From a phage, in sequence record PZ049721.1: DNA of 12,385 nucleotides. One strand, given 5' to 3'. Positions 1 through 7,127 of this stretch are shown here, piece after piece (position 1 is the first letter of the stretch; each line of letters begins with the position of its first letter). The notes under the pieces were generated by a model. That model did not search any database, was not told the DNA's origin, and saw nothing but the letters and a program-made list of their open reading frames with translations. The translations under genes and the position numbers were made by a program.

Positions 1-431
1 TCACTTTCATTTTTTTTATTTATATTTGATTTCTTTTGACCTTCTTTAAGTTGTTCTAATGCTTCTGCTAATCTGTTTGGTACTGGTAATCCTAAAGCTG
101 TACAGTTTTCTAAGATACTGATACCTTCATTAGCTATATAAAAATAACAAATTAATGTTCTGAAAATCCAAGTACTATCATTTATTAATCTATCTAGTAA
201 TACAGCTACTATTAAAACTATAAGTATTACTGATTTCTTAGCTATCCCCTTAAATCCAGTATTAGAACTAAGCTTATCTGTTACATATCCTCTTAATAAT
301 CCTGTTAAGTAATCTATTAGCATAAATGCAACTAATACGCTTAATGCTATATCCCATCCCCCAAATAACCATGTAAGTAAAGTTCCAACAATTGCTGTTA
401 GTCCGCTTAGTCTTTCATCGTATATATTCAT
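1..431 (-). CDS. Holin, Phage_holin_4_1 (TcdE-like) family; 3'-partial, C-terminus runs off the window start
   Basis: ATG at 431-429 with AGGAGG SD 5 nt upstream (+ strand 437-442). Hand translation: MNIYDERLSGLTAIVGTLLTWLFGGWDIALSVLVAFMLIDYLTGLLRGYVTDKLSSNTGFKGIAKKSVILIVLIVAVLLDRLINDSTWIFRTLICYFYIANEGISILENCTALGLPVPNRLAEALEQLKEGQKKSNINKKNES... Three hydrophobic helices plus the NEGISILEN..LGLPVP..L motif recalled from TcdE/phage holins. Not in ORF track because there is no stop codon inside the window. Confidence 0.8.
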   Translation of the reverse strand, partial: MNIYDERLSGLTAIVGTLLTWLFGGWDIALSVLVAFMLIDYLTGLLRGYVTDKLSSNTGFKGIAKKSVILIVLIVAVLLDRLINDSTWIFRTLICYFYIANEGISILENCTALGLPVPNRLAEALEQLKEGQKKSNINKKNES

Positions 432-451
432 CTATTCCTCCTAAGTTATTA

Positions 452-480
452 TTAAAAAAGAACCTACTTTTGTAGGTCCT
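452..480 (-). terminator. Putative rho-independent terminator between 57-aa ORF and holin
   Basis: On minus strand: GGACCUAC-AAAA-GUAGGUUC (8-bp stem, one G-U pair; + strand 460-479) followed by U6 (+ strand A-tract 454-459). The 57-aa ORF stop codon (464-466) lies inside the stem. Confidence 0.5.
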
Positions 481-637
481 TAACTATTAGATTTTCATAA
501 CCTTTTTCTGTAAGAATTTCATTAACTTCATTTTGATATTTACTCCAATAAGAATCTGGAACAACTACTCTATATGGTAATCCTCCATTTTCCTCACCTT
601 TTATAATTTGGTCTGCTAAATATTTTGCACTGCTCAT
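464..637 (-). CDS. Hypothetical small protein (57 aa), not in supplied ORF track
   Basis: ATG 637-635 preceded by GGAGG SD with 9-nt spacer (minus: taGGAGGaataataatATG). Hand translation: MSSAKYLADQIIKGEENGGLPYRVVVPDSYWSKYQNEVNEILTEKGYENLIVKDLQK, stop TAG 466-464. Same strand and tight spacing as the operon. No recognisable family motif. Confidence 0.5.
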   Translation of the reverse strand: MSSAKYLADQIIKGEENGGLPYRVVVPDSYWSKYQNEVNEILTEKGYENLIVKDLQK

Positions 638-657
638 ATTATTATTCCTCCTATGAT

Positions 658-846
658 TTATATATTTTGTGACATGTTTTGCATTACTAATTCATTTACA
701 ATGTTTTGAGTTGAATCTACTTGCTCTTTTAAATCAGTATTTTCATTTCCTAGTCTTTGCATTTCTATTGCTATTGGTGCAAATACATGAGGGCAATTCT
801 TTGCTAGAAAGTCTATTGCTTCCTCTAAAGTCATAGTATTATTCAT
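658..846 (-). CDS. Hypothetical small acidic protein (62 aa); track ORF 658..879 trimmed to the SD-supported ATG
   Basis: Track ORF begins at GTG 879 directly abutting the upstream stop with no SD. The in-frame ATG at 846-844 has a strong SD (minus: aaaGGAGAtgtttttATG). Product: MNNTMTLEEAIDFLAKNCPHVFAPIAIEMQRLGNENTDLKEQVDSTQNIVNELVMQNMSQNI. No TM segment and no family recognised. Confidence 0.5.
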   Translation of the reverse strand: MNNTMTLEEAIDFLAKNCPHVFAPIAIEMQRLGNENTDLKEQVDSTQNIVNELVMQNMSQNI

Positions 847-879
847 AAAAACATCTCCTTTTTTGTATAAAAATAACAC

Positions 880-3321
880 CTACATTTGAGGTGCTTCTAA
901 TCTATCTAATCTTAATTTTGTATCTAATGTATTAAGTGCTACTGCAAAATTAGCTACATTAGTTTTATATACTTGATCTTGTAACTGTTTAATTTGATCT
1001 TGTATTGATTTTACTAAACTAGGTAAACTAGATGTTATTTTAAAGCTTGCAGGTGGAGCTATTACTCCAGAAAGTATTAACCATAAAGTTTCGTTATCAA
1101 AACTTTCTAATTCTAGTGGATTAACTTCATAAGTCTCACTTAAATTTTTTTCATATAAAAAATTAATATTATTATTAGTTAAATAAGTTTTCAATTGTTC
1201 AACAGTAGTTGCCTTTAATTTAGATAAACTTAAAACAACTCTTTGCATAGTATCATGTATTGCTATTCCCTCAACATCGTTCTTTATTAAATCGGCAATA
1301 CTATAAACTTTTAATTTATCACATAAACACTTTCCATTTTTCTTAAATAAGTTAGAATCTAATATAAATAAAGTTGTTTCTGCTCTTGAGGTACTGATAA
1401 TAAAGTTTTCAATCCCAACTAATGACATAATATCTATATTGCGAGTAAAAATATTATTTTCAATAGTATCGCAACTATTCAAGTCAATTCCTCTTAACTC
1501 TGTAACTGGCTTCCAATTTCCATCTGTATCTCTAAATAAAATTGGTTTTTTATCTTGTCTAAATGGCTTGTTTTTATTTTCGGGTAAACCTAGAAAAACG
1601 TTGCTTGCATCTTTGTAAATCCTAAATTTCACATATTCAGCATTTTTAGGTGGTGCAAATAACTCAACACTCGGTTTATCATAAATAACACTTATAAAGT
1701 TTTTATTTATATCATAAAAACATATCATAGCGTGTTTATCAAAAGATGTACCAGAATTACAATCAAATAATAAACTGTTAGATTTTGATGAATCTATTTT
1801 TATAAAATTAACCGTTCTTTTATAATCTGTTCCTGTTGTTGTATTTCCATTTGTTGAATTTAATCCACCTAATTCAAACACCCCGTCAAATAAATTTGCA
1901 TTATAATCTTTTGATAAAACTTCTATTTCACTTCCATTTCCAACTGATGTGATCCCGTAGAGGTTTAGGTTATTGTTCTGTGTAACATCACCAGTAAATA
2001 GACCAACATTATTAACTTTTATTGAACAAGTACACTTCGAACATGCAATACCTAACTCGATTTTAGCTATTGTCTTACCAACTTGCGATATGATTTTATT
2101 AGTTTTAACATATATCTTACCTGTTTCGTTTAAAACCTGTAAACCTGTTATATAAGCATCGGTACCATCAGTGAATGTTACTTTAGGCTGTGCATAAACT
2201 GTTCCTGTTGAACCCTCTTGTGACACAAACTTAGTTACATCTACATCATAATAAATGGTAAAATTATCTCCATGCACAAAAGATGTTCCAAACTCTCTTA
2301 ATGCAATATATGACCCACTTACCGTTGTATAATCTTCCCTAACCCAAGGAAGTTTAACAGTAGGTGATACTAGATTAATTATACTCTTACCACTTAGTTT
2401 TAAATCCTTCACAACTCCATTTTGAGTGTTTTTGCAAACTAAATAATTCTGTCCATTTGGCAACTCATAAGCAAAGTCTTGGCTTTCTTTCATATTATTC
2501 ATATCAACAACAAAATCTTTTAAAGACTTATCACCTACAATTAAATCAGATTTAAGTCTTTGCTCTAAAGTATCATGAACAACTCCGTTAGCATCTTTTC
2601 TAGCTTCCTTAACTTCTAAATCTTTAGTTCCAGCTGCTATAGCTCTATTAACATCAGTTATCTTTTCATCTGTCTTTGATACCATATTATCTATAGCAGT
2701 GTTAGTTTCAACCTTCATATTAACTATAGAATTACCAACTTGTTTAATCATTTCTGTTTTAGCAGTTTCAACTTCTTCTATCTTAGTATTTGCATTGCTA
2801 GTAGCTATATCTGCTTCATTAGCTGATCTATATGCATTATCAATAGCATCTGTTACATCAGTAATCATTGAATTGGCTTTGTTGAGTGCTAAATTAGCTT
2901 TGCTTGATGCTTCATTTGTACTATTTATAAGTTCTATAAGTATGGGATAATTTGTTTCAGCTTCTACACCATTTCCAGTAGTTAATCCCTGCCATATATC
3001 ATACATAACTGGAGGTGATTGAGCTACTCCACCATCTGCCCTATTAACTAATACTTCAAGTTTGTTAGTTCCAACTACCAATGAATTTGAAGGGAATACT
3101 ATATCTATTATCCCATTTTTAGCATCTACTAACTTACCAAATCCGCTTATTTCAATAGAATCTTTAGTAGTAAATGTGCAAGCAATACTACCCCCGGTAA
3201 AATCATCAGATCCACCAGTAACAAGTTTGCATCTCAAAGTATTATTTGTACTCAAATTACCCTGGTTAAAATAAATTATATCTTTATATAACCAAGGCTT
3301 AGTAAAATCTATTGTAAACAT
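880..3321 (-). CDS. Baseplate upper protein (BppU)-like tail fibre / putative receptor-binding protein, 813 aa
   Basis: ATG 3321 with SD aGGAAGTAGGTG and 5-nt spacer. N-terminal ~115 aa (MFTIDFTKPWLYKDIIYFNQGN...FTGGSI...DAKNGIIDIVFPSN...) fits my recollection of the BppU N-terminal domain. It is followed by an Ala/Asn/Thr-rich heptad-like linker (res ~130-250), a large Ser/Thr/Asn/Gly-rich beta-type region, and a C-terminal helical segment (SLVKSIQDQIKQLQDQV...). Position is directly downstream of Tal. Confidence 0.6.
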   Translation of the reverse strand: MFTIDFTKPWLYKDIIYFNQGNLSTNNTLRCKLVTGGSDDFTGGSIACTFTTKDSIEISGFGKLVDAKNGIIDIVFPSNSLVVGTNKLEVLVNRADGGVAQSPPVMYDIWQGLTTGNGVEAETNYPILIELINSTNEASSKANLALNKANSMITDVTDAIDNAYRSANEADIATSNANTKIEEVETAKTEMIKQVGNSIVNMKVETNTAIDNMVSKTDEKITDVNRAIAAGTKDLEVKEARKDANGVVHDTLEQRLKSDLIVGDKSLKDFVVDMNNMKESQDFAYELPNGQNYLVCKNTQNGVVKDLKLSGKSIINLVSPTVKLPWVREDYTTVSGSYIALREFGTSFVHGDNFTIYYDVDVTKFVSQEGSTGTVYAQPKVTFTDGTDAYITGLQVLNETGKIYVKTNKIISQVGKTIAKIELGIACSKCTCSIKVNNVGLFTGDVTQNNNLNLYGITSVGNGSEIEVLSKDYNANLFDGVFELGGLNSTNGNTTTGTDYKRTVNFIKIDSSKSNSLLFDCNSGTSFDKHAMICFYDINKNFISVIYDKPSVELFAPPKNAEYVKFRIYKDASNVFLGLPENKNKPFRQDKKPILFRDTDGNWKPVTELRGIDLNSCDTIENNIFTRNIDIMSLVGIENFIISTSRAETTLFILDSNLFKKNGKCLCDKLKVYSIADLIKNDVEGIAIHDTMQRVVLSLSKLKATTVEQLKTYLTNNNINFLYEKNLSETYEVNPLELESFDNETLWLILSGVIAPPASFKITSSLPSLVKSIQDQIKQLQDQVYKTNVANFAVALNTLDTKLRLDRLEAPQM

Positions 3322-3336
3322 ATATACACCTACTTC

Positions 3337-3471
3337 CTAATTGTAAGAATTTCCTGTTATCTTTGTATAATCTAGCTCATCGATTTTATTCAACATTACA
3401 AATTCTCTAACATCATCATCGTTATAAAATCCATCTATATAATTATCTTTTATAAAAACAAACCAATCCAT
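3337..3471 (-). CDS. XkdX-like small phage protein (44 aa), not in supplied ORF track
   Basis: ATG 3471-3469 lies 1 nt after the Tal stop (TAG 3475-3473) with SD-like GAAGGTAGGTG upstream. Hand translation: MDWFVFIKDNYIDGFYNDDDVREFVMLNKIDELDYTKITGNSYN, stop TAG 3339-3337 abutting the SD of the next gene. The W...Y..G.Y....V......KI....Y.KITG..Y pattern matches what I recall of the XkdX family (PF09693); assignment is from memory. Confidence 0.5.
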   Translation of the reverse strand: MDWFVFIKDNYIDGFYNDDDVREFVMLNKIDELDYTKITGNSYN

Positions 3472-3472
3472 A

Positions 3473-6400
3473 CTAAACACCTACCTTCGCAACTTCTAAA
3501 GCTAACATAGCTAAATTCTTTTTAGTTTCAATTAATTCTTTATCTTTTATAGCAATCTCTTTAGCCAAATCAGCATTAATTTGTTTTAATTTAATATTTT
3601 CCTCAAAACTATTTATAGTAGCTTCATTTGTATTTACTTTTATTATGTCATTTTCATCTATCATTGCAAAGCTAGTAGCTAATAGTCTATCTTTAAAAGC
3701 ATAATTAGATTGCAATGCTTGGTATACATTTGCATCATATATATTCCTACCTCCAAAATTCCAGTCGGCCTTATTCCAAACAAAGTCTGATGCAGAAATC
3801 CACAATGTTTCAGATACGTTTCCGAAAGAATCAGAAACTCCTATTCTAGTACCTCCTCCTCCATTTGCTGGTTGACCTCCAAGCTCCAAAAGGTTTCCAT
3901 CTCCCTTTACCAAACATCCATTACCTTTTGCAAACTTTATAGCATAAGCATTTTCAACTGACATATTAACCATATCTATTCCGCTTCTACATCTAATACG
4001 CTTAACATCTATATTTCTTTGACACGTTATATCTCCCCAAACTTCTATATCTTGAGTAACATGCAAGTTATTGTCTATATGTAAATTGTTATGAACATAT
4101 AAAGGGTACTTATTTATATGAGTTCCTTTCAATTGGTCGTCATGGTCGTAAAAATTAACCCTCAAGTAAGAAGTTGCATTATTAATATATTCAGTATCAT
4201 CTATAGCATTTGGCTGATGAGATATATCAAAAAATGCACAGTGCTTGGAAGTTGAAATTGCATTACCAAATATTTTAGAATAATCACTATTTCTAGTAGC
4301 TCCTATAAAAGACAGAAAGTTACCATCATCAAAGTTGTAAGTACAAATTTGTGATTTATCTATAGCTAATTTTCTAACTCCAAGAGGTGTTAAAAACTCT
4401 AATGCATCAGCTCCCCATCTGCTTTTATACTCATTGTTATAGGTTTGTTCTATTCCCTTGCCATTGAATTTCATATTAGTAACGTACATTTCATCAGAAG
4501 CAGGAACCCATTTTCCAGCTATGTTAGACTTAAAACACCTTAATTCGTTCACGTAACAATGCGCATACGGATACTTATCACTATCAACCCCATTATAACT
4601 AGCATATATGTAAAACTTCATCCAGTTAGCACCGCTTGGAACATCTACAGTATGATTTACAGCGCCTCTAACAACATCTAATTTAATTACATCTTTTCTT
4701 ATATCTGGATAAACTCCAAAACCTTCATATTTCTTAGAATAAAAGTGTATTTCGCAATACGTTTCCATAGCTCTCTCAAAAGAATAATCAAATGCTAAAG
4801 TATGTTTTTCTCCGCCTACAACTTTAATATTAGATGTTTGAAAACCTCCAGCACTTCCATAGTTAGAAACTGTAAATTGTAGATTAGGTTTTCCTTTAAA
4901 TAAAACTACATTGGGGCTACCAGTGTGCCCACCAGTATACATGTAATCTGTAGAATTAGTGCATTTGGAGTTTAAAATCTCATTAGTTCCTCCAGTTTGA
5001 GAAAAATTCATATTTATAAAATTGTTATTAGCTTCAAATTGAGATTTAGTTATAACATCTTCCTCTTTACCATCAATCATCATTTTAAAAACACTAGGCA
5101 TTAAGGTCATTCTTCCCCAGCTATCGATGTCAAATACACGCTTTCCGTTGCCATCTATAACAGAAGCTCCTTTTAGTTCTACCCAGTTAGCCTTTATAAT
5201 TCCAGCTTCCATGTAATCAGCTGAGAATATATTAGCAACCAAGTTTCCAACTCCTAGAGTAGAGAAATATTCTTCGAAATCATCTGATTTTTTAGTAGTA
5301 ACAGTTACTTGAGTACTAAACTCTGTACGATTTCCATGTGTATTTTTAGCGCAGACTCTAAAATACCAAGTTTCTGCAGGTTTAGCTTGGAATAAATGAG
5401 AACTAGATTGACCACTATGTATTAAATCAAATATATTAGGGGTAAAATCTTTAGTTTTAGAAGCGTATAATTCATAAGTGTAATAAACTTTATCTTCGAA
5501 AGTCCAACTCAAATCAACACTTCCCCAACCCTTTACAGTAGCGGTTAGAATAGGTGTATTAGGTAAGCTATCAGGAAAATCTCCTATATTACCGTCAGCA
5601 CCATCTTTACCAGGTGCCCCATCCTTTCCAGGAGGTCCTTGAGTTCCGCCACCGCCTATAATGTCACCTAAAGTTGTTCTGGGCTCACCAAGTTCCATGC
5701 TTTCGTATCGTTCTTTTACGAAGTCATATTTATACTTAATAACCTTAGCTTTAGTATCTACATTAAATCTTTTATCAATGATTCTAGCCGTAGCACATAA
5801 GCTTATCTTATCATTAGTACCTTCATATCCAACACATTTGGATAAAGGTATAAATTTAATTGTATAATTGCTTTTAGGTATATCTCTTTTGTTAATCTTA
5901 AATTCATCCTCACATAACTTATCAAGTTTCTCAACCGTAGGTATTTCACCATTTTTAAACTTGTCAGAGTAATCACGTCTACCCTCTATATTTATATAAG
6001 GATGTGCAAAATTTTCTATATAAGGGCTATCTATCCAGTTACTTTTAACTATAGTTTCTTTCCCACCCTCGGGAGTATATTTAGCAAAACCACCAACTCT
6101 AGTTTCGAGATCTGTTAAATCTCTTTCAAGTACAAAGTCAGTTAAGTTTTTACCGAACTCAATAGTCACCTCGTTATCATGACCTCTTTTATTAAGCACA
6201 TGAATATTAGTTCCATCCCTTAATATTTCAGCACCATTCCCGTAAGTGTCTATAATACTTCCTTCTTTACCAGCTATAGCATTAAGTATATTAACATTAT
6301 CTATCTTATAATTTTGAGCGTTAATAATGTCAGAATATCCTCGATAATGAGTTGAAAAGTGTGAGTTTCTAAATAAAGTATTTAAAGCATATTCACAACT

Positions 6401-6718
6401 AGCATTTTCTAAGTTTACATTTTCAACGTGATCATTGGCTAAGTCAAAACTTTCATGCCTTGCAAATACTGATATAACATTCTTCATAAGTAGTTTAGTA
6501 TCATATATCCTAAACTTTTGTAAGTTTTGTTCATCGTTCGGCTTAACCTCTATCATATTTTCATTTATTAACAAATCTGATAAAGGGTAATTATTCGGAT
6601 AATCGAAAGAAAGTTCAAATATCCCGTTTCTTTCTTCCTCTACATATCCACTATCTATAATATCAACTAATTCACCAAGCTTTACTTTTCCAGTCTTGTC
6701 ATACAGTATAGGTATCAC
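3473..6718 (-). CDS. Tail tip protein Tal-like (phage minor structural protein / Prophage_tail N-terminal domain), 1081 aa, with collagen-like and FN3-like modules
   Basis: GTG start 6718 overlapping the Dit stop (GTGA) with GGAGGTG SD 5 nt upstream. N-terminus MIPILYDKTGKVKLGEL...EERNGIFELSFDYP is typical of Gram-positive siphophage Tal N-termini. Residues 355-379 GGGGTQGPPGKDGAPGKDGADGNIG are Gly-X-Y repeats; residues ~383-475 show an FN3-type pattern (P..P..L.....S..LSW....Y.Y......T.YFRV.A.N..G). Large beta-rich C-terminal half ending in a short helical/coiled segment. Sits directly after TMP and Dit. Confidence 0.7.
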   Translation of the reverse strand: MIPILYDKTGKVKLGELVDIIDSGYVEEERNGIFELSFDYPNNYPLSDLLINENMIEVKPNDEQNLQKFRIYDTKLLMKNVISVFARHESFDLANDHVENVNLENASCEYALNTLFRNSHFSTHYRGYSDIINAQNYKIDNVNILNAIAGKEGSIIDTYGNGAEILRDGTNIHVLNKRGHDNEVTIEFGKNLTDFVLERDLTDLETRVGGFAKYTPEGGKETIVKSNWIDSPYIENFAHPYINIEGRRDYSDKFKNGEIPTVEKLDKLCEDEFKINKRDIPKSNYTIKFIPLSKCVGYEGTNDKISLCATARIIDKRFNVDTKAKVIKYKYDFVKERYESMELGEPRTTLGDIIGGGGTQGPPGKDGAPGKDGADGNIGDFPDSLPNTPILTATVKGWGSVDLSWTFEDKVYYTYELYASKTKDFTPNIFDLIHSGQSSSHLFQAKPAETWYFRVCAKNTHGNRTEFSTQVTVTTKKSDDFEEYFSTLGVGNLVANIFSADYMEAGIIKANWVELKGASVIDGNGKRVFDIDSWGRMTLMPSVFKMMIDGKEEDVITKSQFEANNNFINMNFSQTGGTNEILNSKCTNSTDYMYTGGHTGSPNVVLFKGKPNLQFTVSNYGSAGGFQTSNIKVVGGEKHTLAFDYSFERAMETYCEIHFYSKKYEGFGVYPDIRKDVIKLDVVRGAVNHTVDVPSGANWMKFYIYASYNGVDSDKYPYAHCYVNELRCFKSNIAGKWVPASDEMYVTNMKFNGKGIEQTYNNEYKSRWGADALEFLTPLGVRKLAIDKSQICTYNFDDGNFLSFIGATRNSDYSKIFGNAISTSKHCAFFDISHQPNAIDDTEYINNATSYLRVNFYDHDDQLKGTHINKYPLYVHNNLHIDNNLHVTQDIEVWGDITCQRNIDVKRIRCRSGIDMVNMSVENAYAIKFAKGNGCLVKGDGNLLELGGQPANGGGGTRIGVSDSFGNVSETLWISASDFVWNKADWNFGGRNIYDANVYQALQSNYAFKDRLLATSFAMIDENDIIKVNTNEATINSFEENIKLKQINADLAKEIAIKDKELIETKKNLAMLALEVAKVGV

Positions 6719-7125
6719 TTAACCACCTCCATACAACTAAACTTAAAGCTTACATCAAATATTCCCTTAAGTCTTTCTTCCATAGCGACTCCACCAACTA
6801 CGATAGCTTCATATTCAGTTTTATCGTTACTAAACTTTAAAGGTTTGTACTTAACTTCACCAACAAGCCAATCATTAAATTTATCACACATCACACTAGG
6901 ATCAACCCCATCACAAATCAGATAACCTTTTACATTTACATCCTTGCTTTTTCTTCTCTTATTATCAACTAATAAATCTCCATCTCTACCCATAACTTCC
7001 ACTAATTCAAAATCATTCTCGAAAGATTTTAAGTTATCAGCTTCAAAAGCAAAATTAAAAAAAGTGCTAGAAGTAGCACCATATATAAAACTATCTAATT
7101 CAGTTATATTTTTATACCATTGCAC
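6715..7125 (-). CDS. Distal tail protein (Dit)-like, short form (136 aa; N-terminal ring domain only)
   Basis: GTG start 7125 with perfect AGGAGGTG SD (7-nt spacer) encoded in the last TMP codons. Motifs ...EVMGRDG... and ...WLVGEVKYKPLKFSNDKTEYEAIVVG... resemble the conserved PGRDG and L.F.D.P..Y.A blocks I recall from Dit N-domains. Lies between TMP and Tal. Far shorter than the usual ~250 aa. Confidence 0.5.
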   Translation of the reverse strand: MQWYKNITELDSFIYGATSSTFFNFAFEADNLKSFENDFELVEVMGRDGDLLVDNKRRKSKDVNVKGYLICDGVDPSVMCDKFNDWLVGEVKYKPLKFSNDKTEYEAIVVGGVAMEERLKGIFDVSFKFSCMEVVK

Positions 7126-7127
7126 TA

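Follow-up and report, generated by a model that had tools for sequence, protein, structure and literature searches.

Positions 1-431 of the minus strand very probably encode a holin, which belongs to the lysis cassette of a siphovirus-type prophage from Paraclostridium (Peptostreptococcaceae). The gene is truncated, with the final 10 nt up to and including the stop codon missing, by the edge of the window, i.e. the whole 12,385-nt stretch of phage DNA that was analysed (sequence record PZ049721.1). RefSeq already lists the holin, both its family and the way it acts are textbook knowledge, and the find is a correct but ordinary one.

The holin gene at the window edge

When the minus strand is read from position 431 to position 3, 143 codons follow each other with no stop and the frame runs off the window edge. 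The translation is MNIYDERLSG...NEGISILENCTALGLPVPNRLAEALEQLKEGQKKSNINKKNES, and the remaining two minus-strand frames of 1-431 are packed with stops. The sequence-only reading of this DNA had claimed that a stopless ORF at the edge was missed by the ORF track, and this was correct: the frame is absent from the ORF list because the listing tool omits ORFs running off the end of the source. Genes truncated by a window edge are invisible to the ORF track, yet they are recognisable.

1-431, minus strand: holin gene, codons 1-143 of 146 and two bases of codon 144
432-442, minus strand: signals for translation initiation of the holin, as seen in the sequence itself

The start codon is unambiguous. 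The ATG at 429-431 is preceded at a distance of 5 nt by the Shine-Dalgarno sequence AGGAGG (437-442, minus strand), and an in-frame TAG at 432-434, also read from the sequence, abuts the ATG on its 5' side, so that an N-terminal extension of the holin is impossible. A dual-start or antiholin motif was considered and rejected, as there is one N-terminal methionine with a stop directly upstream; the next methionine, and the only other one in the protein, is residue 37. The part that lies beyond the window, 10 nt in all, consists of the rest of codons 144-146, which read EEI or EEM in the relatives with an identical holin, and the stop codon.

Family membership and shape of the protein

The profile comparisons proposed with the sequence-only reading were carried out, and both scores were well above the curated cut-offs with coverage of the whole model. 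The holin matched PF05105 (Phage_holin_4_1) with E=1.2e-42 and 145.1 bits (cut-off 22.2) over model positions 2-116 of 116, and TIGR01593 (holin_tox_secr, with the full name 'toxin secretion/phage lysis holin' in NCBIfam) with E=1.1e-34 and 119.2 bits (cut-off 40.2) over positions 3-125 of 128. It also matched phrog_199, 'holin' in the lysis category of PHROG, with E=1e-28. The score against the NCBIfam model NF035928 (holin_1), 40 bits, was under the curated cut-off of 150 bits.

The motif quoted earlier as the mark of the family, NEGISILEN..LGLPVP, was found at residues 101-109 and 113-118, and this region is the most conserved part of the family. The holin was aligned with 81 distinct family members, drawn from 80 genome loci and TcdE. 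The core motif Y-F-Y-I-x-N-E-x-x-S-I-L-E-N ... G-L-P-x-P is present in the holin at residues 96-118, and the motif YFYIANEGISILEN...LGLPxP is common to the holin and the 81 relatives. Almost invariant in the alignment are the stretch Y96-F-Y-I-A-N-E-G-x-S-x-L-E-N109, G114 and P118; residues N101, E102, S105, E108, N109, G114 and P118 are each common to 79-81 of the 81 relatives, TcdE included.

The protein has a holin-like shape: it is small (146 aa in the relatives; ~130-160 aa would be expected for the family) and has hydrophobic segments, a positively charged loop and a charged C-terminus. Hydropathy analysis gave three strongly hydrophobic segments (residues ~8-26, 28-46 and 67-83) and a fourth at ~88-112, which is weaker, amphipathic and highly conserved. 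The loop at 46-66 is rich in lysine (5 K/R and 1 D), and residues 120-146 form a highly charged tail with 6 K/R and 6 D/E. Three hydrophobic helices had been described from the letters alone. The three strong segments agree with this, but given the weaker fourth one the number of membrane spans is either three or four; scans with the Kyte-Doolittle scale and with a position-independent Hessa scale were compatible with both. A single-sequence AlphaFold model placed helices at 3-23, 28-54, 61-85, 87-102, 105-112 and 119-142 with low confidence (pLDDT 53, pTM 0.26), and it was taken as a weak hint on helix boundaries only. A search of the PDB gave no meaningful relative of the holin, the best match having E=0.23.

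Gene context

Every sizeable gene of the window is on the minus strand, and the holin stands at the end of the late or structural block, which runs through tail tube, tape measure, Dit, Tal, fibre and two small genes. From this follow the orientation of the late region of the prophage and the way in which it ends: structural genes, two small genes, holin and, going by the relatives, endolysin.

10985-12282, minus strand: connector-like small proteins
3473-10985, minus strand: siphovirus-type tail module (Pfam PF10145 and PF06605, and PHROG)
10446-10985, minus strand: tail tube (PHROG)
9740-10376, minus strand: two overlapping chaperone-like ORFs (ORF list; PHROG)
7128-9740, minus strand: tape measure (PF10145; PHROG)
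6715-7125, minus strand: Dit (PHROG)
3473-6718, minus strand: Prophage_tail/Tal protein (PF06605; PHROG)
880-3321, minus strand: tail fibre of 813 aa, the gene that closes the structural block ahead of the lysis region (phrog_6782 'tail fiber protein', E=5.7e-48)
658-846, minus strand: 62-aa protein with no function assigned (ATG at 846 with an AAGGAGA site)
464-637, minus strand: soluble 57-aa protein between tail fibre and holin, identical and in the same place in the related loci L001-L003

The ORF list starts the 62-aa gene from a GTG (658-879), and the ATG at 846 fits the 62-aa call in the relatives. The 62-aa protein had no family match and no hydrophobic segment. The 57-aa protein, likewise with no hydrophobic segment, weakly matched phrog_8908, to which no function is assigned. 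The possibility that either gene encodes an XhlA/BhlA-like lysis accessory protein or a second holin was rejected, because hydrophobic segments and family matches were lacking.

Directly upstream of the tape measure, ORFs of 142 and 82 aa (9740-10376, minus strand) overlap by 41 nt and match phrog_6280 and phrog_6541. This layout is the usual one for a tail assembly chaperone pair made by -1 frameshifting, and the two ORFs are putatively such a pair.

No genes other than those of tail, connector-like and lysis type are present in the window, and the prophage regions of the relatives are mosaic and adjoin host ABC-transporter genes. It could thus be asked if the holin belongs to a defective prophage or an F-type tailocin, in which case lysis would free tail particles or nothing infectious. 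We consider this very unlikely. The contig L086, which is 95.9 % identical to the far 1.8 kb of the window and encodes an identical 82-aa protein, continues upstream with genes for a scaffold protein (PF06810) and an HK97-type major capsid protein (PF05065), so that a head module accompanies the tail. The element is therefore probably not a tailocin, and even if it were one, or were defective, the molecular role of the holin would remain lysis. Judged by its genes and those of L086, the element is a siphovirus-type prophage with a head module and not a toxin locus. The earlier view that the context is one of plain phage lysis and not of toxin export was borne out by the tail genes upstream of the holin and by the capsid and scaffold genes in L086.

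Related loci and mosaic variants

An exact look-up of the neighbouring 57-aa protein gave three loci, L001-L003, which come from the NCBI assemblies GCA_006782905.1 and CP032452.1 (a 3.64-Mb chromosome) and from one sequencing-run assembly. L001 and L003 are Paraclostridium bifermentans assemblies and L002 is the sequencing-run assembly; a fourth locus, L006, is from a Paraclostridium metagenome-assembled genome (MAG). The holins of all four are 146 aa long and identical to the part in the window (143/143 residues), and those of L001-L003 end in ...NES-EEI or -EEM followed by the stop. The RefSeq entry is WP_150885863.1 / QEZ67985.1, 'phage holin family protein' of P. bifermentans, 146 aa, and its cluster mates are from P. 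sordellii and Paraclostridium MAGs. One IMG copy of the 146-aa holin is named 'toxin secretion/phage lysis holin'. In a scan of species-representative genomes, 100 % identity was found in a Paraclostridium MAG and 86 % in Paraclostridium tenue (L007), while the remaining matches, at 69 % identity or less, were from Clostridium and related Firmicutes.

Among isolated phages the closest holins are those of phiCT453A and phiCT453B (C. tetani), vB_CpeS-CP51 (C. perfringens), phiCTP1 (C. tyrobutyricum) and the Terrisporobacter phage TPELB_ph1, which belong to the same family and are 57-63 % identical over ~90 % of the length. In all of these an amidase or endolysin gene comes next, either directly or past one small ORF; CP51 has such an extra small ORF between holin and lysin. 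The hosts and backbones of these phages differ from those of the window, and phiCT453A has baseplate J/XkdT-type genes (baseplate J, XkdU-like) and not a Dit/Tal tail tip.

The P. bifermentans loci have the gene order of the window, i.e. tail fibre, 62-aa gene, 57-aa gene and holin, followed by the amidase, and their DNA is 96-98 % identical to it across the last 1.1 kb. Positions 1133-2373 and 3336-5044 of the window, parts of the tail fibre and of the C-terminal region of Tal, have no nucleotide match in L001. As the fibre and the C-terminal part of Tal differ from those of L001, the window and L001 are distinct mosaic variants within one prophage group, and the window can be assigned to a group of Paraclostridium siphovirus-type prophages. 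The best genome locus was L006, ~96 % identical to the window and mosaic as well.

In the tail fibre the region with no match in L001 and L003, which are otherwise 91-99 % identical, is the distal part, and in the 1081-aa Tal protein it is the C-terminal half; both are likely to be swapped receptor-binding modules. Between the Tal gene and the first start codon of the tail fibre lie ~150 nt (3322-3472), the sole content of which is a 47-aa ORF (3337-3480), whereas in L001 and L003 the Tal and tail-fibre genes abut. The gap could be a recombination scar, or result from a different N-terminus of the fibre or from a sequencing frameshift.

Positions 1-3400 had no megablast match in the phage collection. 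An exact 40-mer of the holin was absent from viral contigs, an exact 42-mer from the window-specific part of the tail fibre was absent from metagenome contigs, and exact-protein look-ups gave no record for the 813-aa fibre and the 870-aa tape measure.

The predicted endolysin gene next to the holin

In all four loci with an identical holin (L001, L002, L003 and L006), a gene for an N-acetylmuramoyl-L-alanine amidase of the Amidase_3 type begins 1-3 nt past the holin stop codon, which agrees with the earlier proposal that the holin marks the start of a lysis cassette. The amidase has 270 aa in L001 and L003 and begins 1 nt after the holin stop; that of L006 has 263 aa with the same spacing. The Amidase_3 match of these three has E~1e-43, and the L006 protein was also found to have an SH3_3 domain. 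L002 has instead a 234-aa protein with Amidase_3 and SPOR domains, 2-3 nt after the holin stop. P. tenue (L007) has, 50 nt downstream of the holin, a 260-aa protein homologous to the L001/L006 amidase with 54 % identity. The amidases of the relatives are full-length (Amidase_3 model matched over positions 1-173 of 174), and the lysins of L001 and L002 fall in PHROG endolysin families.

A similar arrangement was seen in the wider family. At 69 loci from other genomes, the first sizeable ORF after a related holin was classified; these ORFs comprised 39 Amidase_3, 13 Amidase_2, 9 Glyco_hydro_25, 3 Glucosaminidase and 2 Phage_lysozyme proteins and one each with CHAP, VanY and helicase domains, so that up to 68 of the 69 have a peptidoglycan-hydrolase domain. 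Annotated phage genomes also have the holin first and the lysin next, in the same order as the Paraclostridium loci. We infer from these relatives that an endolysin gene is present next to the holin in the genome from which the window comes.

1-4, minus strand: GTGA, beginning of the junction stretch GTGAGGAGAT, compared at the junctions of L001, L002, L003 and L006

In the relatives, GTGAGGAGAT serves twice, as coding sequence for the final residues of the holin and as the source of the AGGAG ribosome-binding site for the endolysin. Their holin gene ends in GTG AGG AGA T, which contains the AGGAG site of the amidase, and the window ends within that site; the ATG of the endolysin in the relatives is 12-13 nt past the window edge. 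In the relatives, the endolysin begins 1-3 nt past the stop and its ribosome-binding site lies within the last codons of the holin; the two genes probably share a transcript and have linked translation. A start of the endolysin at an upstream ATG, which corresponds to positions 10-8 of the minus strand and is used in the annotation of L003, was regarded as unlikely and rejected, because this ATG lacks a Shine-Dalgarno sequence and does not share the reading frame of the L002 amidase.

Amidases of the L001 type and the L002 type share only 28 % identity. Between L001 and L002 (positions 10640-10700 in both), near-identity gives way abruptly to unrelated DNA over the final 4 nt of the holin gene, from offset 437 of its 441 nt onward. 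By this comparison, alternative endolysin modules are joined exactly at the holin stop, which is thus a precise junction for module exchange. With two amidase modules behind identical holins, the lysin that follows the window may be of either type. Knowing exactly where alternative endolysins are exchanged, namely at the stop codon of the holin, is a mildly useful by-product of the present analysis.

Outside the window, the lysis cassette of related prophages is followed by cargo genes with PADLOC matches to defence systems. A protein of 826 or 788 aa (L001 14540-17020 and L002 14123-16489) matches mad8 with E=6e-9 to 4e-15, and a 424-aa protein (L001 17266-18540) matches PDC-M62B with E=5e-61.

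Comparison with TcdE

TcdE is a toxin-export holin and gives the TC family 1.E.19 its name. The TcdE sequence was confirmed by exact look-up (TCDE_CLODI, 166 aa, Clostridioides difficile), and the holin is 26 % identical to it over 140 residues (pairwise E=6e-8). The likeness comprises the same Pfam and TIGRFAM family, the core E-S-x-S-I-L-x-N...C-G-L-P-V-P and a charged C-terminal tail. The designation 'TcdE-family holin' given from the sequence alone thus holds as a label of the broad Pfam/TIGRFAM family, but TcdE itself is a distant member of it.

TcdE is predicted to be a multi-span class I holin with three spans (PMC3369941). It has an N-terminal extension of 24-26 residues with three start codons (M1/M25/M27), which is thought to be a toxin-related adaptation (PMC6200909), and its gene sits between toxin genes and is paired with TcdL, the remnant of a degraded endolysin (PMC6200909; also PMC3369941). 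The holin of the window has none of these, neither the extension nor toxin neighbours nor a degraded lysin partner, and no toxin gene was found within 10 kb downstream of the holin in L001-L003.

It is conceivable that the protein was co-opted as a non-lytic export holin like TcdE, TcsE or TpeE, through which Paraclostridium would release some cargo, such as a large toxin. Such holins belong to the same family, the very name of TIGR01593 includes toxin secretion, and holin-dependent non-lytic secretion has been documented (PMC3369941, PMC9527704); the genus is also close to P. sordellii, whose TcsE exports TcsL (PMC8878733). The identity to TcdE is, however, far below the 57-63 % shared with holins of isolated phages, and the stop codon in frame upstream of the start, with the other methionine only at residue 37, makes an extension or alternative starts impossible. 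The neighbours are tail genes and not toxin genes, and the relatives have kept a full-length amidase of catalytic type in place of a TcdL-like remnant. We regard an export function as extremely improbable. On the compared sequences and gene neighbourhoods, the protein is assigned to the broad family named after TcdE and is not an export holin of the TcdE type.

Terminator-like hairpins upstream of the holin

Two terminator-like hairpins followed by T-runs were found in the last 1.2 kb, compared to 0.2 expected from shuffling.

452-481, minus strand: stronger hairpin, its stem-loop at 458-481 with a 10-bp stem and an AAAA loop, then TTTTTT
875-895, minus strand: weaker hairpin after the tail-fibre gene (-7.8 kcal/mol, z=-2.2)

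The stronger hairpin has a folding energy of -12.8 kcal/mol (z=-3.5). It shares sequence with the stop codon of the 57-aa gene and is located directly upstream of the ribosome-binding site of the holin. No equivalent hairpin was found upstream of the P. tenue holin, and a scan for sigma-70-like promoters between the structural genes and the holin gave no convincing candidate. The hairpins may set the lysis genes apart from the structural operon in transcription. If they are functional, expression of the lysis genes from the tail operon needs read-through or antitermination, or these genes need a separate promoter. That a cassette insulated in this way would follow its own expression schedule, even without full induction, and would serve non-phage release as with holins of the TcdE type, is in our view highly improbable.

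Proposed mechanism of lysis

From established canonical holin-endolysin lysis we infer the steps described here, including, by analogy, the membrane topology, the hole formation and the lysis timing of the holin. The small membrane protein would be made late in infection, after the tail genes, and would build up harmlessly in the cytoplasmic membrane by means of its three or four hydrophobic helices, the lysine-rich loop (46-66) and the charged C-terminal tail facing the cytoplasm. On reaching a critical concentration, the holin would oligomerise into membrane lesions, which would collapse the membrane potential and let the signal-less cytoplasmic endolysin reach the peptidoglycan. Going by the relatives, this endolysin would be an N-acetylmuramoyl-L-alanine amidase of the Amidase_3 type with an SH3_3 or SPOR wall-binding domain. 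The cell would then burst and the virions be released.

A second truncated frame at the far edge

A further frame, VDELKAIAKEKGLEGYSSLTKTELIKLIEG*, is truncated by the opposite edge of the window (12291-12383, minus strand) and matches the Pfam family Rho_N with 34.3 bits (cut-off 24.9). In L086 (2476-2608) the same frame is open for 44 codons with no start codon; relative to the major capsid gene, the 3' end of which reads ACA CCC TAA, it is in the +1 frame. This looks like a candidate for +1 programmed frameshifting at the CCC-stop, by which a Rho_N/SAP-like tail would be added to some of the capsid subunits. The Listeria phage PSA offers a comparable case. The possible capsid frameshift is the other mildly useful by-product of the analysis.
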